This document shows, one piece after another, positions 31,422 to 59,728 of a stretch of DNA of 64,000 bases. How positions within the stretch are numbered: the first letter of the stretch is position 1; every line of letters starts with the position of its first letter. The stretch lies in contig JAZTYK010000002.1 of NCBI GenBank assembly GCA_045636925.1, forward strand, positions 61,170 to 125,169, read 5' to 3'. This DNA comes from Oscillospiraceae bacterium (lineage in GTDB: Bacteria > Bacillota > Clostridia > Oscillospirales > Butyricicoccaceae). The notes under the pieces were generated by a model. It did not search any database. It saw only the letters and a list, made by a program, of their open reading frames with translations, and was not told the origin of the DNA. The position numbers and the translations under genes are program-made.

Positions 31422-31623
31422 GATTTTCGCATAAATCTCGGTTTTTTAGCAATTTTCTATTGCATTCCGTCAAAAACCCGCAAAAAAGTGTGCTATATTT
31501 TTGTCATAGTCCTACAATAGCTTTTTTGCGCGAGATTTGTTATAATATGTATGCTTCGGGGCATTGCGCCCCGCTGTATATAGACAATATAAAAACAAGA
31601 AGATAGAAAGAGAGGCCTCCATT

Positions 31624-33135: not shown

Positions 33136-33146
33136 GCAATTTTTCC

Positions 33147-33190
33147 GGCCTCCCCTTGCCCTGCAGGGGGAGGCTTTCCTTTATTCTTCG
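33147..33190 (+). terminator. Intrinsic terminator after the hydrogenase gene
   Basis: GCCTCCCC...GGGGAGGC stem followed by TTTCCTTTATTCTT. Confidence 0.7.
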
Positions 33191-33209
33191 TCACGAAAGG
33201 ATGAACCCT

Positions 33210-34391
33210 ATGAATTACAGAGATTTGGCCGCCGACATCAGCTCCTATATCATTCAGCAGCGCCGGTGGTTCCATCAGCATCCCGAGCTGAGCTGGGAGG
33301 AAACAGAAACCACCCGTCAGATCATCCGCCAGCTGGAGGAAATGGGCTATGCCGTGCACACCTATCCCCACCGCCCCGGCTGCTGGGCTCTGCTGCAGGG
33401 CGGCAAAGCCACCGACCGCAGCAAAACCATCGTTCTGCGCGCCGACATTGACGCACTGCCGGTGACCGAAAAGACCGGACTGGACTTTTCCAGTGTCAAT
33501 GAGGGCGTGATGCACGCCTGCGGACACGACTGTCACATCGCCATGCAGCTGGGCGCCGCCAAGCTGCTGATGGAGACCCGGGATCAACTGGAGGGCAACG
33601 TCAAGATCTTCTTTCAGGCGGCAGAGGAGACCTGCGCCGGCGCAGGATACTATATCGACAACGGCATTCTGGATGATGCCGATGCCATCTTTGGCATGCA
33701 CATCTGGAACGACCTGGAATCCGGCAAGCTGAATGCCCAGGCCGGCCCCCGCATGGCCTCCTGCGGCAATTTCAAAATCACTGTCAATGGCACCTCCTGC
33801 CACGGCAGCAACCCCTCCGGCGGTGTAGATGCCATGGTGGCTGCCGCTGCCATCATTATGAACCTGCAGACCATCGTTTCTCGCAGCAATGACCCAAGAA
33901 ATGCCCTTGCCCTCACTGTTGGCACCATTCAGGGCGGTCAGCGCTTTAACATTCTGGCCAATCAAGTGGTGATGGAAGGCACCACCCGCACCTATTCCAA
34001 AGAAATGTACGAGGCCACCGAGCCGCTGATGCGCCGCATTGTGGAAAACACCGCTGCCACCTTTGGCGCAACGGCCACGCTGGAGTTTGTTCCCGCCCTT
34101 CACGCCTTGGTCAACAGCGACGAGCTGCTGAATGCCGTAGGCGCAGAAGCTGCCCGCAAACTGTACGGTGAAGATGGCGTTAAGGAAATGCCCCCGCTGA
34201 TGGGCAGCGAGGACTTTTCCATGTTCACCCAGCACGTGCCCGGCATTTACTGTTTCCTGGGCAGCAACTGTCCCGGGCACGATGCGCCCCATCACAATGA
34301 CAGTTTCAATCCCGACGAGTCCGCCCTGCAGCGTGGCGCTGCGTTGGCCGCGCAGTTTGCCTTTGACTATCTGGCAAAGACCAATCGGTAA
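33210..34391 (+). CDS. M20D-family amidohydrolase (N-acyl-amino-acid amidohydrolase/hippuricase-like)
   Basis: MNYRDLAADISSYIIQQRRWFHQHPELSWEE and ACGHDCH motifs. The start is either 33210 or 33201. The ORF-track start at 33156 lies inside the upstream terminator. Confidence 0.85.
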   Translation: MNYRDLAADISSYIIQQRRWFHQHPELSWEETETTRQIIRQLEEMGYAVHTYPHRPGCWALLQGGKATDRSKTIVLRADIDALPVTEKTGLDFSSVNEGVMHACGHDCHIAMQLGAAKLLMETRDQLEGNVKIFFQAAEETCAGAGYYIDNGILDDADAIFGMHIWNDLESGKLNAQAGPRMASCGNFKITVNGTSCHGSNPSGGVDAMVAAAAIIMNLQTIVSRSNDPRNALALTVGTIQGGQRFNILANQVVMEGTTRTYSKEMYEATEPLMRRIVENTAATFGATATLEFVPALHALVNSDELLNAVGAEAARKLYGEDGVKEMPPLMGSEDFSMFTQHVPGIYCFLGSNCPGHDAPHHNDSFNPDESALQRGAALAAQFAFDYLAKTNR

Positions 34392-36670: not shown

Positions 36671-36751
36671 CCTCCTTGCAAATATCCATACCTAAACAAA
36701 AAACACACCCCGGTTGGGGTGTGTTTCTTGTTTGGCGGAGAAGGAGGGATT
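36671..36751. repeat. Copy 1 of an 81-bp direct repeat holding a terminator hairpin plus the last 19 nt of tRNA-Ser
   Basis: Identical to 36883..36963. Contains AAAAAACACACCCCGGTTGGGGTGTGTTT and TGGCGGAGAAGGAGGGATT. Confidence 0.9.
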
Positions 36752-36882
36752 GGCCGCCTGCTGCGCAGGCTTTCTGCTCGGCGACCGCTCGCTGCGCTCC
36801 GGTACCCGCCTCACACCACCCGGCTAAAAAACAGTCCCCCGGACTGTTTTTTCACACCGTGTGCCCTCACGGGTTCAAATCC

Positions 36883-36963
36883 CTCCTTGCAAATATCCAT
36901 ACCTAAACAAAAAACACACCCCGGTTGGGGTGTGTTTCTTGTTTGGCGGAGAAGGAGGGATTT
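36883..36963. repeat. Copy 2 of the 81-bp direct repeat, continuing into the full 23-bp att core
   Basis: Identical to 36671..36751, offset by 212 bp. Confidence 0.9.
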
Positions 36964-36966
36964 GAA
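36944..36966. repeat. attL core, a 23-bp copy of the tRNA-Ser 3' end
   Basis: TGGCGGAGAAGGAGGGATTTGAA is identical to 59639..59661. Similarity stops on both sides. Confidence 0.85.
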
Positions 36967-38995: not shown

Positions 38996-40372
38996 TTAAT
39001 CAAGCCAGGCAAACTTAGAAAACATACTTACGATACGAAGTATAGTTTCCTTTGTTTTTCTGTTAAAGGTACACTCTCCAATACGTTTTTCGTGTGTAGC
39101 ACCATCGTAAGCTTCTATAAATATTGCTCGGTAAACCTCTTCAAGTTTTCCTTGGATACTTACAACTGCGGAATGGGTCCCACATTCTTCATATGTTTCG
39201 TCCCTGTTCAAAAGCTTGCCAAATGGATTATAGTTTGCATCCATAAACTCAAGCAAAGGGGAGGAATCCTTTCCTTGGATGAACTTTTCATATCTGGCGA
39301 AGTCAACTACTTTCAATCCAATCATAATAGGTACGATATAAAGCAAACAGAACAGGATTGCATGTTCATTCCCAAAAAGGAAATCGTGTTTCTTCGTATT
39401 ATCATGCATAACATCGTGTGCCGCCATTCTTGCAAGACTGAGATATCTAGCGATTTCTCTAAGAGAGAAATCATATCTGCGTATTACTGAATTGCACATC
39501 ATATCGTACAGATAAGAGGTGGCGTTAAATCTGATACTACTATAAAACGATTCAAGATTTACTGGCGGCAACGACATTCGCAAATCAAAAAAGCGATCTA
39601 AGTACCTACAAGCATTGAACTTATCACCATAATATCGTTTAATTGTATGCTGTAATTCGCTTGTGTTAATTGAAAAAACAAATGTAATTCTATCATTGGA
39701 AAAATAGTGCTTAATCCGCTCCAATAAGCGAACTGCATAACTGGGGTTGCATCTATCAAGCTCGTCAATAAAAACTACAAGGCGATCCCCACGTTCTTGT
39801 AAAATGGAATCCAAAAACTCCTTAACTTCTGTTTCAACGTTTTTTGATTTTCTTAATTCGTCAAGTGGCTTCTTCCCCCGGAAATCGGAGATTAAATTGC
39901 TCCAATTTCGCCCTGTAAAAAGCTCTATAATATTCGCTGCGGTTTTAACAAAGGCTGCGTCATCTGGAACAGAGAAATCTGTGTCGACACTTTTTAAAAT
40001 TGCGTAAACTAAGGATAACACCGGATCATTGTCGCTATCATTTTCCCATGCATCATAGTAGACGGATACCTGCGGCGGATATTCCGGATCATTCCCCTTG
40101 TGGAGTCTTTTCCATTCAGAGATAATAGCTGCTTTATCGTCATCATTGAATGTCTTAATAAATTGATTGCTCGCATCTAAAAACATTTTGACTTGATTTA
40201 CAAAAAATGTTTTTCCACTTCCCCAACTACCATCAATCGCTATAGAGCAGCTACCCTCTACGGAATTCAATATATCTACAAAGTGAAAAATATCCGTGTT
40301 GCGCCCAATCGTATCGGTCAAAAAACTATCCATCAAATTTTCATAAGTGGGCTTCAGTTCGTACGATTTCAT
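38996..40372 (-). CDS. KAP-family P-loop NTPase, soluble variant
   Basis: Walker A IDGSWGSGKTFF, a YYDAWEND block, Walker B VVFIDELDRCNP. No TM hairpin lies between the Walker motifs. About one-third GC by eye. Confidence 0.85.
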   Translation of the reverse strand: MKSYELKPTYENLMDSFLTDTIGRNTDIFHFVDILNSVEGSCSIAIDGSWGSGKTFFVNQVKMFLDASNQFIKTFNDDDKAAIISEWKRLHKGNDPEYPPQVSVYYDAWENDSDNDPVLSLVYAILKSVDTDFSVPDDAAFVKTAANIIELFTGRNWSNLISDFRGKKPLDELRKSKNVETEVKEFLDSILQERGDRLVVFIDELDRCNPSYAVRLLERIKHYFSNDRITFVFSINTSELQHTIKRYYGDKFNACRYLDRFFDLRMSLPPVNLESFYSSIRFNATSYLYDMMCNSVIRRYDFSLREIARYLSLARMAAHDVMHDNTKKHDFLFGNEHAILFCLLYIVPIMIGLKVVDFARYEKFIQGKDSSPLLEFMDANYNPFGKLLNRDETYEECGTHSAVVSIQGKLEEVYRAIFIEAYDGATHEKRIGECTFNRKTKETILRIVSMFSKFAWLD

Positions 40373-42935: not shown

Positions 42936-43610
42936 TTATTCCTTGCCATCCACCAGCGCGCCGTCCTTCAGGTGCAGCACCTCATCTGCCATCTCAGCAA
43001 TGGACAAGTCATGGGTCACCGTAATGACGCAATAGCCCTGCTCGTGGGCCAGCTTGCGCAGCAGTTCTACTACTACCAGCGTGTTTTCACTGTCCAGATT
43101 GCCAGTTGGCTCGTCGGCAAGGATCACCCGAGCATCGGAAGCCAGCGCTCTGGCGATGGCCACACGCTGCTGCTCACCGCCGGAGAGCATGGCAGGCAGG
43201 CGCTTGTAATATTCCTCGCCCAGGCCAACCATCTGCAGCTTCTCCTGAGACACTTCCTTGGCAGTGGCGGCATCTACTTTCCGCAGCAGCTGCGGATAGC
43301 TGACATTCTCCTCCACACTCAGCAAAGGAAACAGATTATAGCTCTGGCAGATCAGCGAGATCTTCCGCAGGCGATACTCGTCACGGCTCAGCTCGCCGGT
43401 GGTCTGGCCGTCGTATTCCACGGTGCCTTCGGTGGGCACATCCAAGCCCGCCAGCATGGAGAGGAAGGTAGTCTTGCCGCAGCCGGACTTGCCTACGATG
43501 GCGTAGAACTTGCCCTCCTCAAACTCGTAGCTGATGCCTCTTACGGCATGGACGGTCTGATACTTGCTCTGATACTTATAATGCACATCGTTCGTCTTCA
43601 AAATAGCCAT
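42936..43610 (-). CDS. ABC transporter ATP-binding protein (MacB/FtsE-like)
   Basis: GKSGCGKTT Walker [16 protein letters not shown] signature, [11 protein letters not shown] Walker B. Confidence 0.92.
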
Positions 43611-43615
43611 AACCC

Positions 43616-44839
43616 TTACTCCTTATCTCGCAAAATTTCCATTACATTGACTCTTACCATCAGCATCACCGCCAGTGCTGAGCCGATGCTGTAGCACAGC
43701 AGCACACCGCCGCAGGTGAGGGCAGAAAACTCGCCCAAGCCGCTGACCAACACCGCCGTGACACCCAACATAATACCAATCACGCACAGCATCGCCTGCT
43801 CCAGCAGAGCTTTTCCCGTGATCTGCATCCCGGTTTCGCCCAGCAGCCGCATAACGGCGAACTCCTGCTTTCTGCGGCGAACCAACAGGAAGCATAGAAC
43901 AAAGCCAATAGCCGCCACCGCGGCAAAAAACACCGGATACAAGCCTTCCAGCATCTTTAGGTTGCTCTGAATGGGATCAATGGTGCCGCGGAAAATCTCG
44001 TCATCCAGCCGGATATTCAGTTGGCCTTTATCCTTCAGGGTCTTGATAAAGTCGCCGAAGGCAAATGTTTTCCGGCTGTCCGCAAGATCAAACTTCATCG
44101 ATGTCAGGCAGAACGGAATGACCGATTCCTCCGCTTCATACGCCGCTTCCATCACAGACAGCGGCAGAAACAGACTGCTTTCCGAGCTCAACGGCGCTAA
44201 GCCCACTACCTTCAGCCGCAAGGGCGCGTAACCCGACGGAATTGCAAAGGCAATACAGACGGTATCCCCCAAGGCATAGCCGTAGTTTTCCGGCAGGATG
44301 GCCACGGCTTCACTGCCGGACAGACAGCTTTCGTCATACCCTTCCAGCCATTGGCTATCTCCACGCACCTGCAGCAGTGGGTTGTAAACAGCCAGCTCCG
44401 TCATTCCCTTTGCAGTGCCCAAGGGATCATCGCGCTTGATGGCGTTGTCCTTTTTCTTTTGGGTATAAACCGTGCTGATTTCCTCGGCCAGTTCCTCAGA
44501 CCCCGGTGCGAATCCGGGAAACAGGCTGTAGATCTGATATTTCTTGGGGAAAACGATGCCGTAATCCGTTCCGGCGGCATAGGCACCCAGATATCCCGAA
44601 TCCAGCAAATCACGAAACAGCTGCTTGCGAATGACAGGCGTGCTGTGCCCGTCCGTATGTAAGATTTCACCGGTGACGGTAATGGAATCATAGGCGTGCT
44701 CCAGCTGCACGCGGGTGCGATCCATCAGCCGAGGGTAGCTTAGCAGAAATCCGGTGACCGCGGCGGCAAAGACCACTACCAGCAGCACCGAGATCCTGCG
44801 GCGCAGAGCCATACGCAGATACATCAAAACAGAACGCAT
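43616..44839 (-). CDS. FtsX-family ABC permease (407 aa)
   Basis: The start MRSVLMYLRMALRRR follows AAGGAG. TM1, an extracytoplasmic domain, then 3 C-terminal TM helices. Confidence 0.8.
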   Translation of the reverse strand: MRSVLMYLRMALRRRISVLLVVVFAAAVTGFLLSYPRLMDRTRVQLEHAYDSITVTGEILHTDGHSTPVIRKQLFRDLLDSGYLGAYAAGTDYGIVFPKKYQIYSLFPGFAPGSEELAEEISTVYTQKKKDNAIKRDDPLGTAKGMTELAVYNPLLQVRGDSQWLEGYDESCLSGSEAVAILPENYGYALGDTVCIAFAIPSGYAPLRLKVVGLAPLSSESSLFLPLSVMEAAYEAEESVIPFCLTSMKFDLADSRKTFAFGDFIKTLKDKGQLNIRLDDEIFRGTIDPIQSNLKMLEGLYPVFFAAVAAIGFVLCFLLVRRRKQEFAVMRLLGETGMQITGKALLEQAMLCVIGIMLGVTAVLVSGLGEFSALTCGGVLLCYSIGSALAVMLMVRVNVMEILRDKE

Positions 44840-44964
44840 CGTATCCACTCCTTTCGTTTCTAAAACAGCAAACATAAAATGGGAGAAAGTACCAGTCTCC
44901 TCCCATTTTATGTTTGCTTACATGTTTTAACTTCGACAAGAAATTTTTTAATAACGAAATATTA

Positions 44965-46959
44965 TCAGTTCTTGTCCTCTGGAAGGAGGGCACGGGGTTC
45001 TTTGCCTATGTACATACCAGTGAAAATTGCAGTGAGCAGCAGGAACAGCGCCATGCAGGCGATGCCGGTCAGAGCGGTGAGCAACGGGCTTGCGCCGGTG
45101 GAAAGGGCCACCTTTGCGCTTTCTGCCGTGTCGCCCAGAATGCTTGCGCCCACGCTTTGGGTCAGCGCGCCGCCGAGGATTGTACCAAGCGCACCGCCTG
45201 CCAGCACCACAACTGCGGCGCAGGTGAGGATGGCGATAAAAGCCTGCTTTTTGCTGCCGCCCAGCATCCGCAGGATGCCTGCGCTGTGCTTGTGCTGCTG
45301 TGCAAAGAGGAATGCCATCAGCACCATGGTAACTGCCAACAACGCCGCCGACAGGCCCAGCAGCAGCTTGGCATTTTTGTTCATTTCTATCAACCCGGGT
45401 TGGATCTTATCATAACCCTGATCGAAGTAGCTGAGCTTCAGTTCATATTCACCGGACTTTTGCTCCGTCAACCCCATTTCTTCCGCAGCGGCCTTGAACT
45501 CGTTAATGCTGCCGTTTTTCAGTTCGATAGTGATCAAGCTGGGCTGAATGGGCCCTTCCGGCGCATTGGGTGCCGCTTTGGCGGGGATGTAGATGGCGTT
45601 CCACGGGGCAAAAAATACTTGCGGCGCAGTACTCCCAAAATCGGTAAACTCCTGTTGGCCAAAGATACCCACGATCTCATAGGTATCTTCTTCAAAAAAA
45701 CCGCCGCATTCGTTCAAAAAAACGGGTGAAGACATATAGTTTTGTTGCATGGTAGCATTATGGATCACGGAAGTTTTGTCATAAAAGGCATCGTAGATAT
45801 ACAGGTGCATATCCAGTGTGTCCCCCACCTGCCAGCCCTGATACTCTGCCATTTGCGCGCTGACCATACAGACCTTGGCACCGGAAGCATATTCTGCTTT
45901 TGTGATCATTCTGCCCTCGTGGAGATACATCGCCCCTTGATACCACGCAGGGATCAGAGAAATGTCATCCGTCAGGGTTGCAATAAAGGAATGGGCGCTG
46001 TATTCAATGCCCTGACTGCACTCCTTCCAGACAGGGTCATCCTTTACGTCTTCATATCGCTGTAACGCAAAGGGCATTTTTTGCAAAAGGGTTGAACTGT
46101 TGGATACATTCGAATTGTGGATTCCGCTTTTGCTGTAGTATAAAAAATCGTCGGTGTAATAGTCAAATGGATATATATCCAGCTGAATGCCGCTGCCGGA
46201 GCCGGCATAATCACCGGTCCAGACATATACACCTGTTTCCTCATCTCTCTGCCAGTAGCTACCGCCCTTGACCGACATCACGTATTCCACACCGGGATGC
46301 AGAATGATCCGGTCACTGACTTCGCTGCGGTTCAAGCGGCGAATGTCCTCCGTATACTTTTTTGCTTCTTCCATTACCACCGGTTCAATGCGCAGCGTAA
46401 AGGTTTTCGGATATTGCAGATTTGGATTGGAGGTATCTAACACGCGAATGGGAAACTGCATCCACTGCCACTTTTCTGCCTGCAGAGATATTTCCGTTGG
46501 CTCTTCTGCGTCCAACATAAACCGTATAATATTATTGGTGGAAAATGGAGTCACAGACTCCACCAGATAAGCGGGAGGAACCGTGTTGTCCTGCAAAATC
46601 GCTATCTGCCCCGGAATATAGGCCCCCACCCGGGTACGGAGATCGATGCGTTCTACGGAATCCAAAGCAAGAAGCGGCGACAGGTCATACTCCTCTACAG
46701 AAAGCCAATGGCGCCCTACGCAAGCTTTATCGCCGGGATGCACCAGCTCACCCATTTTATTCACATCCCCGTAGATCTCCATCGTTGCAATAGAGGTATA
46801 GGCATTCTCTACGGTTTGCAAGTTCTTCACGCTGTTCTGATACAGGTTTAGGCTCAGCACAAAGAATGCGGTGGTGGCGCACAGCAAAATTAAATTCAGT
46901 GCCAGACGCGCTTTGCTCCGGCTAATCTGCTTGAGAAATATTTGAATATGTGGCTGCAT
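44965..46959 (-). CDS. FtsX/MacB-type permease with a ~480-aa extracytoplasmic domain (paralog 1)
   Basis: 664 aa, with TM1 at the N-terminus and 3 TM helices at the C-terminus. Paralogous to 47620..49650. Confidence 0.8.
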   Translation of the reverse strand: MQPHIQIFLKQISRSKARLALNLILLCATTAFFVLSLNLYQNSVKNLQTVENAYTSIATMEIYGDVNKMGELVHPGDKACVGRHWLSVEEYDLSPLLALDSVERIDLRTRVGAYIPGQIAILQDNTVPPAYLVESVTPFSTNNIIRFMLDAEEPTEISLQAEKWQWMQFPIRVLDTSNPNLQYPKTFTLRIEPVVMEEAKKYTEDIRRLNRSEVSDRIILHPGVEYVMSVKGGSYWQRDEETGVYVWTGDYAGSGSGIQLDIYPFDYYTDDFLYYSKSGIHNSNVSNSSTLLQKMPFALQRYEDVKDDPVWKECSQGIEYSAHSFIATLTDDISLIPAWYQGAMYLHEGRMITKAEYASGAKVCMVSAQMAEYQGWQVGDTLDMHLYIYDAFYDKTSVIHNATMQQNYMSSPVFLNECGGFFEEDTYEIVGIFGQQEFTDFGSTAPQVFFAPWNAIYIPAKAAPNAPEGPIQPSLITIELKNGSINEFKAAAEEMGLTEQKSGEYELKLSYFDQGYDKIQPGLIEMNKNAKLLLGLSAALLAVTMVLMAFLFAQQHKHSAGILRMLGGSKKQAFIAILTCAAVVVLAGGALGTILGGALTQSVGASILGDTAESAKVALSTGASPLLTALTGIACMALFLLLTAIFTGMYIGKEPRALLPEDKN

Positions 46960-47032
46960 AGGGACACCTCACTTTTGCAGAAAGAAGAATCTCCGCAGGC
47001 CCTAAAGGGCCTGCGGACATGGAACATTCGCA

Positions 47033-47341
47033 TCAACTCAAGCAAACAAAGCGGCTCACATAATCAAAAGAAATTGCGTATGCATTACATACGATGCACT
47101 CATAATAAACACCGCAGTACCATTCTTCCGCATCGTGATCTCGATGCTCGGGACATTCAATAACGCGGTTAAACATTTCTTGATACCCTATGCATACAAA
47201 ATCCCGCTGGGCTTCGCAGTAAAAGCAATATGCATCAAATGCAATCTCCCCATCTGCCGCAAATGCCATCACACCCATAGTGGAGCAGATCATGATGAGA
47301 GCCAGTACCAGGCTCAGGGCGCGTTTTGCTTTCTTTAACAT
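47033..47341 (-). CDS. Small Cys-rich protein with N-terminal signal peptide/anchor (paralog B, 102 aa)
   Basis: The start MLKKAKRALSLVLALIMICSTMGVMAFAA follows GAGGAG. CxxC...CP.H...CxxC...C pattern. Lies directly upstream of permease paralog 1. Confidence 0.7.
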   Translation of the reverse strand: MLKKAKRALSLVLALIMICSTMGVMAFAADGEIAFDAYCFYCEAQRDFVCIGYQEMFNRVIECPEHRDHDAEEWYCGVYYECIVCNAYAISFDYVSRFVCLS

Positions 47342-47479
47342 AATAATACTCCTCGCTTTCTTTTTTGTCCAGCAAATTGTGTTCATCCATTTCCTGACCC
47401 ATTGGCCTCACCTTCTTTCCAAATAACGAATACTCCATCTGTTTCAGTGTAACAAGGTTTAATTACCCTTCTATAAATA

Positions 47480-47508
47480 ATATGTATAGCAAGCAGCAAA
47501 TTGTTTCA
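47480..47508 (-). promoter_or_regulatory. ECF-like promoter motif TGAAACAA-N14-TACATAT upstream of small protein B
   Basis: Minus strand TGAAACAA (47501..47508) and TACATAT (47480..47486). The same motif and spacing occur at 50184..50212. Confidence 0.55.
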
Positions 47509-47619
47509 TAAAAAATCAAAGTTTTTGCATATTTTCGAAATTCACAGACACTGTATCGCACTTCCGTATGCGACGCCAATTTCGATGTCAACGGGGACGA
47601 TATGTGCCATCAACACTAT

Positions 47620-49650
47620 CTATCCCTTATCCTGAGGCAACAGTTCGCGAGGTTCTTTGCCGATGTAGGTGGCCGTAAAGATGGCGGTAAGTAGCAGAAA
47701 CAGCGCCATGCAGCCCACGCCGGACACTGCTGTCAGCACCGGGCTTGCACCGGTGGAGAGGGCCACCTTGGCAGAAGCTGCCGCATCACCCAGGGCGCTT
47801 GCGCCCACGGTTTGGGTCAGCGCGCCGCCGAGGATTGTACCAAGCGCACCGCCTGCCAGCACCACAACTGCGGCGCAGGTGAGGATGGCGGTGAAAGTTT
47901 GAGCTTTGCTGCCGCCCAGCATCCGCAGGATGCCTGCGCTGTGCTTATGCTGCTGTGCGAAGAGGAAGCTCATCAAAATCATCGTCACCAGCAGCAGTAT
48001 CAAGGACAAGGCAAGCAACAGAACTGCGTTGCGATTCATTTCCACCAAGCTGCCTTTGATCTTGTCATAGCCCTGATCGAAATAGCTGAACTTCAGCTCA
48101 TACTCTCCCGGCTTTTGCTCGGTCAGACCCATTTCCTCTACGACAGCCTTGAAGTCGTCAACGGTGCCATTTTTCAGATGGAAGGTCAGCAGGCTCGCCT
48201 GAATGGCTCGGTCTTCCAATGCCGGTGCGTGGGGCGCGGAGTTTTCGGGGATGCAGATCACATTCCAGGGCTGTGCAAACACTTCGGGCGCAGCTTCGGA
48301 GTCCACTTCGCCTTCGTTCTGTCCGTAAATGCCTACGATCTCGAACTGCCCTTCGTCGAAAAAGTCCTCCATATACATAGATGCCCACATTTCGCTGCAA
48401 GAGGTGGTTCCGGTATACTGTGGGAAATCTTCATGATACAGATGCATATCCAGCTTGTCGCCCAACTTCCAGCCGTGCCGTTCCGCAAGCCGCGTACTGA
48501 CCATACAGACCTTGGTGCCGGAATCATATTCTTCTTCTGTGATCATCCGGCCTTCCTGAAGAAACATATTCTTCACCTGCCAAGCCGGAAGCAGCCGAAT
48601 GTCCGAGGTCAGTGTCACAGCAAAACTGGAGGTGGAATAAGCTGTGGCCTGCCATAAGGCATCGAAATAGGCGGCAAGCTCCGGGTCGCTTTGTACATCC
48701 TCCCATCGCTGAATACAATAGGGGACATTCCCCTTAATGCCAGCGGAAGTATAATACTCACTGTCGCCTGAATAGTGCAATGCAGCGCCTTCGTACAGAC
48801 AAGGGTAATTATATACCATAAACCGTATAGAAACCACGCGACCTTCTATCGCATTAAGTCTCTGAACCGGAGAATATAAACCGGTATCCGGATCCTTTCG
48901 AAACCATGTATCAGTCTCGCTGGCACCGAACAACACATATTCCACATTAGGATACAGGATCAGTTTATCGGTCTCCTGCGACCGGTTCAGCCGCCGGATC
49001 TCTGCATCGTGGTCATTTTGCACCGCATGAATGACTGATGAAAATGTCAGACCGATGGGGTTTTTGTATTCTATCTGCGGATGGGTGGTCTCCAGCACCT
49101 CGATGTCTACCGCTTTCATATCATAACGATAATATTCGCCTGCTTTTGTCCGGCTGATCTCCACCGGTTCATCGCCGCTGAGACGAAAACGCAGCATGTG
49201 GATTCTCATCGTGGTGTTGACATCCGTTGGCTGCAGGCCGTTGAGCGCCAACTGCGTTTCGTTCATCATCTCGGAAGCATATACATCCAGACTTATCTGC
49301 CCGGGAATATAGGCGGCGCAGCGGTAGCGCAAGTCAACATTCTGTACCATGGGTAACTGCTGCAAGGGAGAAAGATCATAGCCGTATCGTGTCAGCAAAA
49401 AGCGTCCCACTCGGTCGGCGGCGCTGGAATGTACCAGATCACCTTCCTTATTCACATCCCCGTAAATCTCCATGGTGGCGATGGTGGTGTAGGCATTCTC
49501 TACAGCTTGCAGGTTTGCCCGGCTGTTGTGATACAGATTCAAACTGACTACAAAAAAGACTGTAACGGCGCAAAGCAATACAATATTGAGTGCAAAACGG
49601 CTTTTCTTTCGAACCGTTTGCTGAAGAAAAATTCGTATACTGATAGGCAT
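47620..49650 (-). CDS. FtsX/MacB-type permease with a giant extracytoplasmic domain (paralog 2)
   Basis: 676 aa with the same architecture as 44965..46959. The C-terminal ~110 aa are nearly identical between the two. Confidence 0.8.
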   Translation of the reverse strand: MPISIRIFLQQTVRKKSRFALNIVLLCAVTVFFVVSLNLYHNSRANLQAVENAYTTIATMEIYGDVNKEGDLVHSSAADRVGRFLLTRYGYDLSPLQQLPMVQNVDLRYRCAAYIPGQISLDVYASEMMNETQLALNGLQPTDVNTTMRIHMLRFRLSGDEPVEISRTKAGEYYRYDMKAVDIEVLETTHPQIEYKNPIGLTFSSVIHAVQNDHDAEIRRLNRSQETDKLILYPNVEYVLFGASETDTWFRKDPDTGLYSPVQRLNAIEGRVVSIRFMVYNYPCLYEGAALHYSGDSEYYTSAGIKGNVPYCIQRWEDVQSDPELAAYFDALWQATAYSTSSFAVTLTSDIRLLPAWQVKNMFLQEGRMITEEEYDSGTKVCMVSTRLAERHGWKLGDKLDMHLYHEDFPQYTGTTSCSEMWASMYMEDFFDEGQFEIVGIYGQNEGEVDSEAAPEVFAQPWNVICIPENSAPHAPALEDRAIQASLLTFHLKNGTVDDFKAVVEEMGLTEQKPGEYELKFSYFDQGYDKIKGSLVEMNRNAVLLLALSLILLLVTMILMSFLFAQQHKHSAGILRMLGGSKAQTFTAILTCAAVVVLAGGALGTILGGALTQTVGASALGDAAASAKVALSTGASPVLTAVSGVGCMALFLLLTAIFTATYIGKEPRELLPQDKG

Positions 49651-49720
49651 ACTGACACATCCTTTTTACGGCGGAAATGCGGCAGGCGGATTATCCGCCT
49701 GCCACATCTTATTTAAATGG

Positions 49721-50023
49721 TTACCAAAGACAAATGTAATCTTTACGATCGAAACCACTGTCGTATTCCCACTCGCAGTTTCTACAGCGGAGGATATAAT
49801 GTACATAATACTCCTCCGCATCATGTTGTTCGTTGTGCAACGGACATACGATAACGCGATTGAATTGCCAATCCTCAATTCTCCGGAGAACGAGGTCCTC
49901 ACCACAGTTGGGGCACTCGGAAGGTGCGGCGGTTTCTGCCGCGAACGCCATGACGCCCATGGTGGAACAGATCATGATGAGAGCCAATACCAGACTCAGA
50001 GTTCTTTTGGTTTTTCTTAACAT
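49721..50023 (-). CDS. Small Cys-rich protein with N-terminal signal peptide/anchor (paralog A, 100 aa)
   Basis: The start MLRKTKRTLSLVLALIMICSTMGVMAFAA lies 8 nt after AAGGAG. CPNC...CPLH...CRNC...C pattern. Confidence 0.7.
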   Translation of the reverse strand: MLRKTKRTLSLVLALIMICSTMGVMAFAAETAAPSECPNCGEDLVLRRIEDWQFNRVIVCPLHNEQHDAEEYYVHYILRCRNCEWEYDSGFDRKDYICLW

Positions 50024-50183
50024 GTTCATAACTCCTTTTCGTTTGTTTTTTTCTTGAACACAGTCTTCGATATCAAACGCTTCCTGGCCCATTGGACTCA
50101 CCCCTGTCTTCCGCATTTTCTTGCGGTTATTGCGAATTTGAAATGAAGAAGAACAAATATCGCTTATTTGCTTCTCTACTATG

Positions 50184-50212
50184 ATATGTAGAGAAGGACA
50201 CGATTTGTTTCA
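50184..50212 (-). promoter_or_regulatory. ECF-like promoter motif TGAAACAA-N14-TACATAT upstream of small protein A
   Basis: Minus strand TGAAACAA (50205..50212) and TACATAT (50184..50190). Confidence 0.55.
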
Positions 50213-50526
50213 ATCTTTTTTGTCGAATTAACAATTTGTTTGCAATTTAGATGTAAAACAAGCTCGATAAACTCGTCCGGGGCAACGAATCATCTTCATG
50301 TCTTTTCTTCGGGGAGCAATTGCGATATAATAAGAATCATGTTAAAACTTGTTTCTTGCTGAAACTGCAAATCGGAATGTTTTCTATGTCAACCGTAAAG
50401 TTCTTTTGCAAAACAAACTACCGTTTCATCGAATTATGCGTATTCCCTTTTTCAAAATCCTGTGCTATAATCCGCTATAATTGGACATTTACCGATGAAA
50501 TGATATCTGTTCAGGAGGTGATAGCT

Positions 50527-51033
50527 ATGACGGAAGAACAAAAACAGTCGATTGATTCGTATATTCTCTCACATTATGACAAGTTGCTTGGCTTTGCATT
50601 TGGTGCCCTGCATGATCAATATAAAGCAGAGGAAGCCGTGCAGCAGGTTTTTTTGATTGCTTCGAAAAAGCCCGATGCGTTGATCAATAGCCCGAATCCG
50701 GTGGGCTGGCTCATCAATACGCTTAAATATGTCATAGCAAATATGCGCCGTTCTGACTTTGCGGATCAGCGTCTTTTGGCAAAAGCTACAGCTTTGCACG
50801 AAAATGCCGCACAGGAAATTGATATGGATGATCTCCTTACTATAGAAACACTGTGGTCAGATATTATTAAAACACCAGAATTCCAATTTCTGAAGCTGTT
50901 CATCTACGATGGATTATCTGATTCCGAGGTTGCCGAAATGTATGGTATTACATATCTCGCGTGTCGACTTCGAAAATCAAGATATCGCAAGCGACTGCGC
51001 GAACTAATTTTAGAAAAATATGATATTGGATGA
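50527..51033 (+). CDS. Sigma-70-family (ECF-like, regions 2 and 4) RNA polymerase sigma factor
   Basis: The start MTEEQKQSID follows a GGAGGTG RBS. 168 aa. C-terminal HTH LSDSEVAEMYGITYLACRLRKSRYRKRL. Confidence 0.8.
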   Translation: MTEEQKQSIDSYILSHYDKLLGFAFGALHDQYKAEEAVQQVFLIASKKPDALINSPNPVGWLINTLKYVIANMRRSDFADQRLLAKATALHENAAQEIDMDDLLTIETLWSDIIKTPEFQFLKLFIYDGLSDSEVAEMYGITYLACRLRKSRYRKRLRELILEKYDIG

Positions 51034-51091
51034 AACAAATTGGTCCTATCACTACATACTGTAATAGATAGGCCATAGAAAGGAGGGTCAC

Positions 51092-51991
51092 ATGTCTTTC
51101 AACCAACGCTATGAATCGCAAGATTTTACAAAACATGACAGCATGAGCACGGAAGAACTTGGCAAGATTTTAGAGGCCGAGCCTTTGAAACCCCGAGAAG
51201 ATCAACTGCCCGATGACGAACTTCTTTATATTTCTGAGGTTTACAGCAATCGCTTTGATATGCAGAAGATTTTCCCTAAAACCAACGAGGAATATTTGGA
51301 GGAGTTTCACGCCTTTCGGGCATCCCTGTCTGAAGATGATCTTTCTTTTGTCTTGGAGCAAGAAGAAGCTGATTTCAAGGAGACGCTTGCGGTTCTAAAA
51401 CAAGTTAGCAAACGCAAATCCAGCAAAAAAACTCGTCGTCTGCCTGTTCGGAAGCTTGCAGTGATCGCTGCTACAGTGGCCGTAGCTTTTTCATTGATGG
51501 TTCTTCCTGTTAACGCTTCCGGTAACAGCGTACTCGACACCATAGTGATTTGGGCAAAGGAAACATTCCAGTTTGTAAGTAGAGACTCAGGTACTGACGA
51601 TTTTGTTGAAAACACAGAGTTTCAAGAATTTCTGTTACAGTACGATGTGACCGAACCTGTTCCTTCACTGATACCAGCTGGTTTTGAATTATTCACCACA
51701 AATGCGGACATTCAACCTTTACAGTCTAAATTTTTAGCCAACTATACCGACTCAAACAATCATTGTATTAATATCTCTATAAAAACTAAAATTTCTGGAT
51801 CTCCGTCTTATGTTGAACAATTGGGCGGCACATATGAAACCATAAAAATTGCAAGGCAGGAATATTTTATCTTTGACAATACAAATTGTTTAACCGCAGT
51901 GTGGCTTACCGACACTCATGAGTGTATTCTTTCCGGGAATCTCTCTGTTGCTCAAATAGAAACTATGCTTGATTCTATTGCAAAGGATTGA
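51092..51991 (+). CDS. Putative anti-sigma factor-like single-pass membrane protein (DUF4367-like ectodomain)
   Basis: Lies immediately after the sigma gene. Central TM helix LAVIAATVAVAFSLMVL. The C-terminal domain resembles those commonly paired with such sigma factors in Clostridia. Confidence 0.6.
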   Translation: MSFNQRYESQDFTKHDSMSTEELGKILEAEPLKPREDQLPDDELLYISEVYSNRFDMQKIFPKTNEEYLEEFHAFRASLSEDDLSFVLEQEEADFKETLAVLKQVSKRKSSKKTRRLPVRKLAVIAATVAVAFSLMVLPVNASGNSVLDTIVIWAKETFQFVSRDSGTDDFVENTEFQEFLLQYDVTEPVPSLIPAGFELFTTNADIQPLQSKFLANYTDSNNHCINISIKTKISGSPSYVEQLGGTYETIKIARQEYFIFDNTNCLTAVWLTDTHECILSGNLSVAQIETMLDSIAKD

Positions 51992-52514: not shown

Positions 52515-52634
52515 ATTAAAGATTAGATGAAACAAAAGTGGCATATCCATACATACTATAGTAAAAGTCAAAAAATGTTGGTTTTTGCAGGATTAAACCG
52601 TTGCCCTCTAAAGGAAAGAAAGGATGCGAAAGTA

Positions 52635-53801
52635 ATGGAAAAGCGTGTTTTTGAAAAGAAAACTAAGGAAGAAAAGCCTGTCTTAGCAATTTGCTATGAT
52701 TTCGACAAGACTTTGACACCAGACGATATGCAAGCGCAGGGATATATTCAATCTGTTGGCTATAATGTTGCTGATTTTTGGAAAGAATCCAACGGCTTGG
52801 CCGAATGCAACGATATGGATCAAAATCTAGCCTATATGTACAAAATGATTGAAAAGGCGCAAGGGCGTGTATTATTTACTCGCAAAAACTTAGAAGAATA
52901 TGGGGCAAAAGTCAAACTTTTTCCTGGTGTGGATGAATGGTTTGAAAGAATTCGAGAGTATGGAAAGCTTCGCGGCGTAATTGTCGAGCATTACATTATT
53001 TCCTCCGGCCTTAAGGAAATGATTGAGGGAACTTCGGTGGCAAAGAGCGGTGCTTTTGAAAAAATATATGCCAGCTCTTTTTATTTTGATGAGCATGGTG
53101 TTGCCAAGTGGCCGGCACAAGTCGTAAATTACACGAATAAGACGCAGTTTCTGTTTAGAATTGAAAAGGGTGTTTTGGATGTAAATGATTTTGCGGTAAA
53201 TGATTTCTTTGCACCCGAAGACATTAGAGTTCCCTTTAGAAATATGGTTTATATTGGTGACAGCGATACGGACATTCCTTGTATGAAGCTGGTTAATACT
53301 TATGGAGGGCACTCCATTGGTGTTTATAATACCGAAAAAGTAAAAGTCTATAAAATGATGCGAGATAGACGAATTAAGTACTATGCACCAGCTGACTATT
53401 CTGAGGGTAGTGAGTTGGATACGTTAGTAAAATCCATTATCGATCGAACTGTAGCCAATGAGATTTTGGAATCGCGACATTATGAATGCAAAAAAGAAAC
53501 CGCCGAAGCGGATAAACAGAGCGGTGAAGAAGAGCAGCGCAAAACAGATTTGATTATTGCGTTGGAAAACAGTAACAGTTTTGCAAGAACACATTCCATT
53601 ATCAGCAAATTGAGTGCGTTTAACAATTGGAGCGATGAAGATCGGGAATTCTTGTTTGACATTGCGGTCGAGAACGGGCAGGTGTTTTACATTTTGGGAG
53701 ATAGGGATGTGAAAGCCTTTTATAAAAAGCTACTGAGGAAGACGGCTACGCTTACGGAAAATGCTCAAAAAGTAAAGGATGCTATAAAAGGCAAAGAGTA
53801 A
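52635..53801 (+). CDS. HAD-superfamily phosphatase-like protein with a ~110-aa C-terminal helical extension
   Basis: The start MEKRVFEKK. Motif I ICYDFDKTLT (DxDxT). Motif IV YIGDSDTDIPCM. Confidence 0.75.
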   Translation: MEKRVFEKKTKEEKPVLAICYDFDKTLTPDDMQAQGYIQSVGYNVADFWKESNGLAECNDMDQNLAYMYKMIEKAQGRVLFTRKNLEEYGAKVKLFPGVDEWFERIREYGKLRGVIVEHYIISSGLKEMIEGTSVAKSGAFEKIYASSFYFDEHGVAKWPAQVVNYTNKTQFLFRIEKGVLDVNDFAVNDFFAPEDIRVPFRNMVYIGDSDTDIPCMKLVNTYGGHSIGVYNTEKVKVYKMMRDRRIKYYAPADYSEGSELDTLVKSIIDRTVANEILESRHYECKKETAEADKQSGEEEQRKTDLIIALENSNSFARTHSIISKLSAFNNWSDEDREFLFDIAVENGQVFYILGDRDVKAFYKKLLRKTATLTENAQKVKDAIKGKE

Positions 53802-54540: not shown

Positions 54541-55293
54541 ATGAAGAAAAAATATCAGGTTTTCATTAGCTCAACATATAGCGATCTAATAGAGGAACGT
54601 GCAGCTGTAGCACAGTGTCTGTTAGAGACAGATTGCATTCCTGTTGGCATGGAGCAATTTCCGGCGAGCAATATGAGCCAAATGGATTATATCAAAATGA
54701 TGATTGACGATTGCGATTATTATGTTCTGATACTTGCTGGCAGATATGGATCTCTTGACACCGATGGGGTAAGTTTTACGGAAAAAGAATACAATTACGC
54801 AATCGAAAAAGGCATCCCCGTAATGAGTTTTGTCATCAAAGATGTAGAACAGCTAACAAATGATAAACGCGAGGAAACTGACGAAAGTTGCCAAAAGTTG
54901 AATGCATTTCGGAAAAAGGTTTGTGACAGAAAATTAGTCAAATTCTATAAGGACTGTGGAACGCTTCAAGCTGCTGTTGCTATTTCGCTCCATCGTTGTA
55001 TTCAAGATTTTCCTGCTGTTGGTTGGGTGCGAAGTGATAACACTGAAACACCCGTGGATGTTGAAGCAAAAATCGAAAAGTATATGCAAGAACATACGGT
55101 TTCTAAAGCAGACATTGAAGCATTGTTTGCAGAAGATACAATTATTTTTGATTGCGGTGATGCAAACTTACATGGTTCGGATGCAGAAAAAGCACAAGAA
55201 TCGTGTTCCGACACGGTTTCCTTGGCTGGAGCTCGTGCAATAGTTGAAGGGTTAACAAAAAGGTTACCAAAGGTTGAATGGGGAGACCTTTAA
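54541..55293 (+). CDS. DUF4062-domain (TIR-like fold) protein
   Basis: The N-terminus KYQVFISSTYSDLIEERAAVAQCLLE...IPVGMEQFPA...DYYVLILAGRYG matches the DUF4062 signature as I remember it. Confidence 0.65.
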   Translation: MKKKYQVFISSTYSDLIEERAAVAQCLLETDCIPVGMEQFPASNMSQMDYIKMMIDDCDYYVLILAGRYGSLDTDGVSFTEKEYNYAIEKGIPVMSFVIKDVEQLTNDKREETDESCQKLNAFRKKVCDRKLVKFYKDCGTLQAAVAISLHRCIQDFPAVGWVRSDNTETPVDVEAKIEKYMQEHTVSKADIEALFAEDTIIFDCGDANLHGSDAEKAQESCSDTVSLAGARAIVEGLTKRLPKVEWGDL

Positions 55294-58175: not shown

Positions 58176-58376
58176 ATGTCAGAAAAAATCAATTCTTATA
58201 TATTAAGCGTTTGCGACGTTGCATCCATACTCAACATATCCAAATCGAAAGCCTATGACCTTATGCGGACAGATTCTTTTCCCTCACTACGGGTCGGAAA
58301 ACGAATTCTTGTCCCTCGCGACAGATTCGAGGCCTGGATAGATCAACAAATAAGTTCAAATAGAAACAATGAATAG
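58176..58376 (+). CDS. xis: Excisionase-family HTH DNA-binding protein
   Basis: 66 aa. VASILNISKSKAYDLMRTDSFPSLRVGKRILVPRDRFEAWI is typical of the MerR-like excisionase family. Confidence 0.8.
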   Translation: MSEKINSYILSVCDVASILNISKSKAYDLMRTDSFPSLRVGKRILVPRDRFEAWIDQQISSNRNNE

Positions 58377-58386
58377 GAGTGTATAT

Positions 58387-59556
58387 ATGGCAAAAAATCG
58401 CGCAAGGGGAGGCGGGTCCATCCGCCAGCGTTCCGATGGCAGATGGGAAGCTCGCTATACGGCGGGCAATGATCCTTTAACTGGAAAGCAGCTTCAACGG
58501 TCCGTTTATGGAAAGACCCAGCGAGAGGCACAGCAAAAGCTCAATAAAGTTCTCGCCGAGGTAGACTCCGGCACATATCTAAAGCACTCAAAAGAAACCC
58601 TGGCCTCTTGGATGGAATCCTGGCTTGAAACCTTTGCTGCACGCTCTGTCAAACCGTATACGCTGGACGCCTACCAGCGTATCTGCCAGGTCCACATCAT
58701 TCCTGCACTGGGGCATATTGCCCTCGCCTCTTTGACCACGATGCAAGTACAATCCTTTTATAACAGTTTGACAGATAGCAAGTGCCTCTCCGCTAAAACG
58801 GTAAAAAATGTACACGGGGTATTGCACAAAGCTCTTACAAAGGCCGTGCTGTTGCGCAAAATTTCCTTTAATCCTGCTGAAGGGTGCGATCTTCCTCGCG
58901 TCAAACGCAAGGAAATTCAACCATTGACCCAAGAGCAAATCGGTGACTTCTTGCGTGCAATTTGCGGGCACGTCTATGAGTTTCTCTTTTTCTTCACGCT
59001 TTTTACCGGGGTGCGAGAAGGAGAAGCCCTAGGTTTGACCTGGAACCGTATTGATTTTCAGAACAACAAAATCTTGATCGATAGGCAGCTTCAGAAAAAT
59101 GAAAAAGTTGGGGGTGAGTATATCCTGTCCTCCCCTAAAAATAGCAGGCCGCGCACCATCACTGTTTCCCCCTCTGTTATGGCCGTTCTTCGCAAGCAGC
59201 GCTCTCATCAACTCCGACAGCAGTTGGCGGCAGGGCCTGCATGGGACAACCCTCTCAACTTGGTTTTTACCAATGCCTTTGGAGGCCATTTGTGCCACAC
59301 CACCGTCTACAAGAATTTCAAGGTCATCGCAACACAGATTGGAGCACCTGATCGGCGTTTTCACGATCTCCGCCACACCTATGCAGTGCTCGCACTTGAG
59401 GCAGGGGATGACATCAAGACCTTACAAGAACATCTTGGTCACGCCACCGCAGCTTTCACACTCAGCGTATATGGTCACGTATCTGAGTTGATGCATCAAC
59501 GCTCAGCAGCCCGTATGGATCAGGTCGTGCAAAGTTTCACGAAAGAAGCCGTTTAA
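58387..59556 (+). CDS. int: Tyrosine-type site-specific integrase
   Basis: The start MAKNRARGGGSIRQRSDGRWEARY follows AGGAG. Catalytic blocks HDLRHTYA and LGHATAAFTLSVYGH. Confidence 0.92.
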   Translation: MAKNRARGGGSIRQRSDGRWEARYTAGNDPLTGKQLQRSVYGKTQREAQQKLNKVLAEVDSGTYLKHSKETLASWMESWLETFAARSVKPYTLDAYQRICQVHIIPALGHIALASLTTMQVQSFYNSLTDSKCLSAKTVKNVHGVLHKALTKAVLLRKISFNPAEGCDLPRVKRKEIQPLTQEQIGDFLRAICGHVYEFLFFFTLFTGVREGEALGLTWNRIDFQNNKILIDRQLQKNEKVGGEYILSSPKNSRPRTITVSPSVMAVLRKQRSHQLRQQLAAGPAWDNPLNLVFTNAFGGHLCHTTVYKNFKVIATQIGAPDRRFHDLRHTYAVLALEAGDDIKTLQEHLGHATAAFTLSVYGHVSELMHQRSAARMDQVVQSFTKEAV

Positions 59557-59593: not shown

Positions 59594-59638
59594 GAAAAAT
59601 AAAAAAGCCTGCAACCCTAAGGATTGCAGACTATTCTC

Positions 59639-59661
59639 TGGCGGAGAAGGAGGGATTTGAA
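59639..59661. repeat. attR core, the 3' end of the intact tRNA-Ser
   Basis: Identical to 36944..36966. Confidence 0.85.
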
Positions 59662-59728
59662 CCCTCGCGACCCTTTCGAGCCCTACTCCCTTAGCAGGGG
59701 AGCCCCTTCACCACTTGGGTACTTCTCC
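59639..59728 (-). tRNA. tRNA-Ser (anticodon GCU), CCA-encoded, long variable arm
   Basis: The reverse complement folds by hand. Acceptor GGAGAAG/CTTCTCC. Anticodon stem CTCCC/GGGAG with loop CTGCTAA. Variable arm of 19 nt. T-arm GAGGG-TTCAAAT-CCCTC. 3' GCCA. Confidence 0.92.

Follow-up and report, generated by a model that had tools for sequence, protein, structure and literature searches.

The window analysed here, a stretch of 64,000 nt of contig JAZTYK010000002.1, contains a module of six genes, all on the minus strand, which with a probability of about 80% encodes a heteromeric ATP-binding cassette (ABC) machine of type VII with exchangeable long permease subunits and cognate extracytoplasmic Cys/His partner proteins. 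The gene order given in the original prediction was borne out, all six genes being confirmed as open reading frames (ORFs): small protein A (49721-50023; 100 residues from MLRKTKR; E = 6.3e-43 against the family profile), a long permease A of 676 residues (47620-49650; FtsX/MacB-type as judged from its AlphaFold2 model and a Foldseek search), small protein B (47033-47341; 102 residues from MLKKAKR; E = 8.5e-39 against the family profile), a long permease B of 664 residues (44965-46959; FtsX/MacB-type, with Pfam matches to FtsX at 8.2e-07 and MacB_PCD at 1.5e-05), a short FtsX permease of 407 residues from MRSVLMYL (43616-44839; longest ORF 419 residues; Pfam FtsX at 1.9e-05), and an ABC ATPase of the MacB/LolD type (42936-43610; 224 residues; Pfam ABC_tran at 2.4e-33). 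One ATPase is therefore common to both pairs of a small protein and a long permease, as had been claimed, and the FtsX domain is matched in all three permeases; however, these should not be regarded as equals, because the 407-residue permease represents a conserved partner rather than a third equivalent. The genes occupy positions 42936-50023 as previously stated, but this span does not describe the module as a whole, whose promoter motifs sit at 47482-47508 and 50186-50212.

The two small proteins resemble each other as predicted, with 49% identity (E = 2e-24) and an identical hydrophobic core, LSLVLALIMICSTMGVMAFAA. They belong to a real, rare and as yet unnamed family, which comprises about 25 clusters. 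When 5.8 billion proteins were searched with a word index, about 30 full-length relatives emerged, none of them named or assigned to a Pfam domain; HMMER, run in full over 1.84 billion representative proteins with a profile of the mature domain, matched 27 clusters, of which two resemble translated repeats. The Sec signal peptide is near-invariant and consists of a basic n-region, the core LSLVLALIMICSTMGVMAFA of about 19 hydrophobic residues and a conserved A-F-A site. It is followed by a hypervariable mature part of about 75 residues (about 73 in small protein B) with eight conserved Cys/His positions; residues C37, C40, C60, H63, H67, D68, C80 and C98 are invariant in the alignment. The small ORFs are thus conserved, and the signal peptide is under purifying selection, with non-synonymous (pN) and synonymous (pS) differences of 0.11 and 0.42 in its codons versus 0.46 and 0.83 (saturated) in those of the mature part; the low pN indicates an anchor conserved at the protein level, though its pS is half that of the remainder.

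Of the two CxxC pairs proposed for the small proteins, the first stands, whereas the second is no universal trait, CxxH taking its place in a number of stand-alone members and in every form fused to another protein. These swaps favour metal ligands over disulfides, and a disulfide knot was rejected as the chief function of the cysteines; with eight ligands, each mini-protein could accommodate two zinc sites. An identity as cytoplasmic zinc-ribbon protein was also rejected, since small protein A scores below the cut-offs of the respective models (HVO_2753 / PRK14890; 20.9 vs 33.2 and 19.9 vs 61 bits) and a signal peptide is present. The mature proteins are acidic and rich in aromatic residues, with a median isoelectric point of 4.8, a net charge of -7 and 11 aromatics per 75 residues. 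The AlphaFold2 model of small protein A (pLDDT 80, and 81-96 over the mature part) contains three long beta strands, for which Foldseek found no fold relative in the PDB (best E 0.67, with matches to the Yippee and DUF1998 zinc folds not significant), and a profile search of PDB sequences returned nothing.

The long permeases exceed the cut-off of the Pfam model FtsX (PF02687; 28.7 and 29.5 vs 25.5 bits) and stay just under that of MacB_PCD (25-26 vs 27 bits). The AlphaFold2 model of permease A, based on 115 homologs (pLDDT 91.5, pTM 0.83), shows four transmembrane (TM) helices at residues 16-53, 528-577, 582-626 and 637-660 and, between the first and the second of them, a beta-rich ectodomain of about 470-480 residues. 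Foldseek relates this model to LolC/LolE, MacB and the pneumococcal Spr0694-95 at E values of about 1e-10 to 1e-9, to HrtBA, YtrEF and YbbAP at about 4e-8 to 1e-5, and more weakly to BceAB and FtsX (about 3e-4 to 6e-4), with a probability of 1.0 for MacB, LolC/E, Spr0694-95, HrtB, YtrF, YbbP and FtsX, in accordance with an ectodomain core of the Porter/Sabre type; the best matches to LolC/LolE are the lipoprotein-bound structures 9rld and 9rlc (E of about 1e-10). In all but five of the top 33 matches the alignments span about 340-350 columns, which identifies residues from about 56 to 340 as an additional domain of about 280 residues. The long permeases are thus confidently modelled as four-TM subunits of type VII ABC systems (MacB/LolCDE fold) with an extra variable beta-rich ectodomain.

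The C-terminal TM regions of the two long permeases are nearly identical, as had been noted before, at 51% identity over the whole proteins. The pN decreases from 0.46 in the variable part of the ectodomain to 0.27 in the core and 0.15 in the TM region. However, pS between the paralogs also drops to 0.18-0.24 over codons 560-639 (45050-45290 vs 47700-47945), compared to 0.46-0.94 elsewhere, which fits a gene-conversion tract over the second and third TM helices and partly explains the near-identity of the TM regions. Pattern scans of genome-contig and metagenome-contig collections with the permease, the permease alignment and the small-protein alignment returned nothing, and neither did a tblastn search of a plasmid collection with the permease.

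The ATPase contains intact Walker A, signature (LSGGEQQR), Walker B and H-loop motifs, and like the other proteins of the module reaches the cut-off of no NCBIfam model, its best matches being LolD, L_ocin_972_ABC, DevA, FtsE and MacB. The scores are 194.1 and 176.4 bits with the two LolD equivalog models (cut-offs 307.75 and 360), 175.8 bits with the third-best match, L_ocin_972_ABC of the Lcn972 type (TIGR03608; cut-off 254.85), and 166.7 bits with FtsE (cut-off 264.85). The module had previously not been recognized as any characterized transporter, and indeed no curated family with a known substrate claims it. The short permease scores 25.1 bits with the Pfam FtsX model, just below the cut-off of 25.5, and has no relation to the long permeases at the BLAST level. 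It has 63 homolog clusters, many of them on contigs that also hold long permeases, and the clusters of both permease types share contigs across the whole identity range. Among the related loci retrieved from the databases (designated by L numbers), the short permease gene adjoins that of the ATPase in L019 and L035, and the ATPase of the window is 96% identical to that of L035 and, by eye rather than by alignment, about 95% identical to that of L019. The ATPase and the short permease travel together with long permeases throughout the family (L019, L035 and L036), suggesting a heterodimer like that of LolC/LolE; by this gene arrangement, one long and one short permease would assemble on an ATPase dimer, and the two long subunits encoded in the window would share a single short subunit.

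The proposed existence of duplicated, co-diverging pairs of small protein and permease is supported by the correlation between the identity matrices of the mature small proteins and the ectodomains (Mantel r = 0.76, p = 5e-4, 9 pairs), while the mature small proteins show no Mantel correlation with the TM region of the permeases. Mean identities amount to 85% in the N-terminal signal region and 79% in the TM helices of the permeases, versus 36% and 46% in the variable parts. The Mantel correlation proves that the pairs are co-inherited as units, which is compatible with physical contact but no proof of it. Moreover, strong hairpins of differing sequence are found 3' of the small gene in seven of nine loci, suggesting a surplus of small protein over permease. 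In the window, both are GC-rich, lie on the minus strand directly behind the small genes, and are located at 49681-49703 (small gene A; -30.2 kcal/mol, z = -5.95) and 46992-47017 (small gene B; -31.4 kcal/mol, z = -4.1). Adjacency, co-divergence and intergenic hairpin together argue for the small gene as an integral part of the module. A further stem-loop with a perfect 20-bp stem, detected on the minus strand by a scan for terminator-like structures, is present at 44869-44916 in the AT-rich spacer between the genes of the 664-residue and the short permease; it may represent a junction from module rearrangement or an internal attenuator.

The small genes are also preceded by a conserved leader (alignment A3), which contains a perfect Shine-Dalgarno sequence (GGAGGTGA) and an ATG located 60-170 nt before the start, at 50090-50110 and 47400-47420 in the window and at about 9800-10000 in L001. 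The ATG at 50090-50092 is in frame with small gene A and would add 23 residues (MGQEAFDIEDCVQEKNKRKGVMN), and the one before small gene B is out of frame. In a long form of the leader with an insert of about 100 nt (L001, L013, L014b), the ATG starts a Cys-rich upstream ORF of 20 codons. This region could be a regulatory leader or encode a leader peptide; an Rfam search of the conserved leader and the intergenic hairpins yielded sub-threshold noise only.

A view on the gene order of the related loci shows how the components are combined. Locus L019 is arranged as short permease, ATPase, lipoprotein, long permease, small protein, lipoprotein and long permease; L035 (from GCA_054284685.1) as lipoprotein, long permease, short permease, ATPase, followed by long, short, long and short permeases; and L036, with only about 36% identity, as ATPase, two long permeases, a short, a long and a short one. 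The design conserved among related loci consists of one ATPase, a short permease of about 407 residues and one to three long permeases. In addition, GCA_054284685.1 carries more than ten scattered orphan long permeases, placed between housekeeping genes. An ORF of L019 (4340-4867), a neighbour of the motor genes and of a tRNA-like stretch, is a fusion in which the SAM-like N-terminal domain of a tyrosine recombinase is followed by the final 50 or so residues of a long permease. It looks like a recombination or insertion scar at a permease gene.

All nine stand-alone small genes detected by annotating the fetched loci with hidden Markov models are separated from a downstream long permease by no more than one gene. 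The reverse does not hold: among 16 complete long permeases outside the window, a sample biased toward loci fetched via the small gene, four are preceded by a small gene only, three by a small gene plus a Cys-rich lipoprotein of 231-262 residues, three by the lipoprotein only, and six by neither. Permeases without the small gene, whose occurrence the original prediction would have taken as evidence against it, do therefore exist, though in three of these cases a Cys-rich lipoprotein is present. Lipoprotein genes are found directly upstream of long permeases in L013 (10387-11121), L014 (921-1640), L016 (9255-9974), L019 (7033-7728 and 10382-11143) and L035 (7205-7993); their products share conserved N-terminal repeats of the form H-x-W-x3-C-x5-C-x2-CG and a variable C-terminal beta domain, and match no Pfam model.

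The Cys/His mini-domain of the small proteins, in its CxxH variant, also forms the extreme C-terminus of secreted Amidase_6 proteins of the NlpC/P60 clan. Such fusions are represented by P0173, P0184, P0185 and P0175 and by loci L026-L028; one has an N-terminal domain of unknown type and is also secreted. No permease was found near the Amidase_6 fusion P0184 within the contigs of 2-4 kb carrying it, and the gene upstream encodes a paralog of its own N-terminal region.

The module is part of an integrative island of 22.7 kb (36939-59661), delimited by direct repeats of the 3' end of tRNA-Ser (36939-36966 and 59634-59661; att sequence GGCGGAGAAGGAGGGATTTGAA) and carrying a gene for a tyrosine integrase (58369-59556), with tRNA-Ser(GCT) at 59639-59728 as integration site. 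The left end contains an exact duplication of 81 bp (36671-36751 and 36882-36962), which suggests that an insertion occurred in tandem or left a remnant there. The GC content is 38-42% in the arms of the island, 51% in the ABC module and 54-56% in the host flanks. The genome GCA_054284685.1 is syntenic to the window in a hydrogenase-M20 region (31564-34391 vs L035 1-3337; M20 peptidase 82% identical), and the chromosomal master locus of the ABC family is located about 4 kb beyond it, while in the genome of the window the family is found solely on the island. Most simply, the module was picked up from this lineage by an island of low GC content. The family was not found in 60 relatives, and 400 genomes of the class yielded only four distant partial matches. 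Since the genome with the 82% identical M20 peptidase also carries SpoIVA, SpoIIM and SCIFF, the host lineage is suggested to be a spore-forming monoderm.

Both small genes are preceded by a promoter motif of the extracytoplasmic function (ECF) type, TGAAAC-N16-TACAT (also written TGAAACAA-N14-(C/A)TACAT), at 47482-47508 for small gene B and 50186-50212 for small gene A, both on the minus strand. Two further copies (51031-51057 and 52528-52554) lie upstream of genes for a DUF4367 membrane protein (51092-51991, plus strand) and a protein matching PDC-S34 (52527-53801, E = 1.5e-200, true start probably near 52632). These four copies occur within 5.1 kb of the island, where 0.07 would be expected, and the rest of the 1.37-Mb genome contains only one more. 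The motif is probably controlled by the products of two divergent island genes, an ECF-type sigma factor (50320-51033, plus strand) and the DUF4367 protein, and the motif probably marks the regulon of this sigma factor, including the defence-candidate gene of PDC-S34. However, the motif was not found in the related loci L001 and L013-L018, indicating that the link to the sigma factor is local to the island; a sigma/anti-sigma pair as core component of the module is therefore rejected. A TATAAT-type box is present in five of seven aligned regions upstream of small genes, all five of them outside the window.

Among its other genes, the island carries a Mob-like gene, a gene for a DUF4062 protein (54541-55293) and one for a KAP NTPase (38996-40372). 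As stated in the original prediction, no terminator is evident between the ATPase stop and the adjacent 786-residue gene in the terminator-like scan. The KAP NTPase and the 786-residue gene are rejected as parts of the module, because their GC content of 31-38% differs from its 51% and they are absent from all related loci; the KAP NTPase also matches PDC-S20, a single-gene candidate of PADLOC (4e-52).

Taken as a machine, the module follows a plan of one motor with several heads. The ATPase and the 407-residue short permease are the conserved motor, and the 676- and 664-residue permeases are alternative heads with an extra, fast-evolving ectodomain. Each small protein is exported by Sec as the cognate partner of the head encoded just downstream. 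It would bind two zinc ions and be recognized at the outer face of the membrane by the variable ectodomain of its own permease, whereupon ATP-driven mechanotransmission may displace it from the cell surface. The hairpin would keep the small protein far more abundant than the permease, and the integrative island would have captured the whole set and placed it under its own ECF-type sigma factor.

As to the biological role, the most likely reading is that the small protein is secreted for competition or as an effector, and that the ABC machine provides cognate self-protection or release; it is proposed only tentatively, the odds being somewhat against it. It is suggested because the logic of the module matches that of the lactococcin-972 loci and of LanI plus LanFEG, the lipoprotein between small gene and permease in the related loci occupying the position of LanI; the location as island cargo near defence-type genes, the excess of product and the orphan "immunity-like" permeases were also counted in its favour. 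Several features weigh against this assignment or against parts of the machine itself. The mature proteins are acidic, while most bacteriocins are cationic, and they show no relation in sequence or fold to lactococcin 972 or a known toxin as judged from NCBIfam, PDB fold and PDB profile searches. Their mini-domain ends secreted Amidase_6 proteins without a nearby permease, as would be more typical of a docking or targeting tag, and many long permeases have no small gene. Moreover, simple export by Sec leaves the near-invariant signal peptide unexplained, a Mantel correlation can also arise from co-inheritance of neighbouring genes without contact, and the heterodimer is deduced solely from gene arrangement.

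The occurrence of the mini-domain at the extreme C-terminus of Amidase_6 proteins and another secreted protein is the main argument for a docking or regulatory device, in the manner of FtsEX-PcsB or cohesin and dockerin. The mini-domain would here be a tag that docks on the ectodomain, the ABC machine would hold extracellular partners such as tagged Amidase_6 cell-wall hydrolases and switch them allosterically, and mini-proteins encoded on their own would serve as caps, adaptors or competitors. An acidic, aromatic-rich and putatively metal-dependent domain does resemble a protein-protein interaction module, and many orthogonal pairs per genome would fit the need to avoid cross-talk. In addition, the best-known role of FtsX-type ectodomains in Gram-positive bacteria is the binding and activation of hydrolases of the NlpC/P60 or CHAP type (e.g. 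PMC6705773, PMC10694151). We nevertheless consider docking somewhat unlikely, since no permease accompanies the Amidase_6 fusions within 2-4 kb, it is not obvious what a tag would do with nothing attached to it, the hairpin suggests an excess of small protein over permease, and a housekeeping device for wall remodelling would be unexpected as island cargo absent from close relatives. A different use of the same ectodomain is assumed if the machine extracts its partners like LolCDE, with the TM cavity recognizing the hydrophobic anchor of the mini-protein or the lipid anchor of the lipoprotein and releasing them from the outer leaflet, while the variable ectodomain checks the identity of the cargo. 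The top fold matches to lipoprotein-bound LolC/LolE, the combination of two unlike permeases with one ATPase, and partners that are either lipoproteins or have near-invariant hydrophobic N-termini are in line with this, the N-terminus and the TM helices being the most conserved parts (85% and 79%). However, the invariant A-x-A motif predicts normal cleavage by signal peptidase, which would free the protein without any ABC machine, and the low pS of the signal peptide (0.42 vs 0.83) and of codons 560-639 suggests that some of this conservation is due to gene conversion. As MacB also fits the fold about as well as LolCDE, and as the conserved module revealed no LolA-like acceptor, although no search for LolA or LolB was made, extraction appears improbable.

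MacB-type pumps are known to be under sigma-W-type control in Bacillus, and the ECF-type motifs before both pairs of the island could accordingly indicate a generic pump comparable to YknXYZ, BceAB or Spr0693-95, which confers resistance or sensing by expelling or detecting external antimicrobial peptides under the control of an envelope-stress sigma factor, and for which the small proteins are incidental or minor. The many long permeases without small genes and the automatic annotation of one homolog as "ABC-type antimicrobial peptide transport system permease" point in the same direction. Yet the motif is specific to the island, and L001 and L013-L018 use a different upstream promoter region; the strict adjacency, co-divergence and conserved hairpin argue for an integral small gene, and there is neither a two-component system or BceS-like kinase nearby nor a permease with ten instead of four TM helices. 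We therefore regard a generic pump as quite unlikely. The module may also be viewed more broadly as a previously unrecognized monoderm, Lol-like modular type VII system of gut Clostridia, in which one motor serves interchangeable long permeases, recognizes a conserved membrane anchor and a variable head, and extracts or releases the matched mini-proteins or lipoproteins, a generalization that we judge unlikely.

An ABC machine with zinc-type mini-proteins as partners is previously undescribed. Type VII ABC machines such as MacB, LolCDE, FtsEX and BceAB play key parts in the biology of the envelope and in drug resistance, but few of their partners or substrates are known beyond model organisms, and large orphan families of MacB-type proteins have no assigned role. 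The locus provides one such family with a testable partner, a zinc-type protein of 75 residues that can be produced recombinantly, and suggests, as a principle of design, that subunits conferring specificity can be exchanged on a common motor. Should the pairs consist of effector and immunity protein, they would represent a new class of bacteriocins from gut anaerobes; if they serve docking, a new means to tether and control surface enzymes; and if the modular Lol-like system applies, secreted effectors of a new, polymorphic class whose cognate handling is built in. Either way, orthogonal co-diverging pairs should be useful for studying the specificity of mechanotransmission.

Among the known systems, the original prediction already set the module apart from BceAB and FtsEX, which is confirmed. 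It does not belong to BceAB, since the long permease has four instead of ten TM helices, the island carries no kinase and the fold match is weak (E = 3e-4). The ADOP proteins of Acidobacteria (TIGR03434) likewise form large paralogous families of MacB-type permeases without adjacent ATPase, but are duplicated permeases with eight TM helices, and the permeases of the module score only 18.8-24.2 bits against a cut-off of 622.3, which rules out membership. In FtsEX, as known with PcsB, CwlO, RipC and EnvC, a type VII ABC ectodomain also regulates an extracellular partner by ATP-driven change, and the fusion of the mini-domain to Amidase_6 enzymes of the NlpC/P60 clan in other proteins is reminiscent of this. 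However, FtsX is a small homodimer with one conserved partner, a role in cell division and coiled-coil docking, whereas the module is accessory, multi-copy and hypervariable; membership is rejected because the FtsE cut-off is not reached and the permeases have 407-676 residues compared to about 300 in FtsX.

LanI and LanFEG accompany secreted peptides, with LanI as lipoprotein and LanFEG as ABC permease, the lantibiotics concerned being modified peptides. The order of small gene, lipoprotein and permease seen in L013, L014 and L019 is similar, but LanFEG permeases are of the ABC-2 type instead of the FtsX type and show no sequence relation. That a pump of the MacB fold can handle a small, Cys-rich protein exported by Sec is illustrated by the export of the heat-stable enterotoxin STII by MacAB-TolC (reviewed in PMC5985334). 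This system differs in requiring MacA and the TolC duct of a diderm envelope and in using MacB as a homodimer of fused ATPase-permease subunits, while the module has no adaptor gene.

The lactococcin-972-like loci encode a beta-rich bacteriocin exported by Sec together with predicted immunity or transporter genes, and their lcn972/scbABC arrangement, in which a small, unmodified protein of this kind directly precedes the large membrane protein and the ABC ATPase presumed to confer immunity or transport, is comparable to that of the module (PMC11796350). Several loci may also occur per genome, some of them on mobile DNA. This resemblance is one of architecture only: the module matches neither the lactococcin_972 model nor that of the associated membrane protein in NCBIfam, there is no fold match, and the ATPase stays below the TIGR03608 cut-off (176 vs 255 bits), so that the module is not a member of this group. 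It also differs in the acidic, Cys/His-rich nature of the small protein and in having two kinds of FtsX permeases. From LolCDE, the lipoprotein-releasing type VII ABC transporter of diderm bacteria, the module is finally distinguished by an ATPase below the LolD cut-off (194 vs 308 bits), by a long subunit with an extra domain of about 280 residues, by several interchangeable long subunits and orphan copies, and by a host lineage that looks like a spore-forming monoderm. What the two have in common is one ATPase gene with two unlike FtsX-type permeases, the best structural matches of the module, and, putatively, mechanotransmission directed at proteins that are anchored in the membrane and handled on its outer side; lipoprotein genes are also associated with the module in its relatives.

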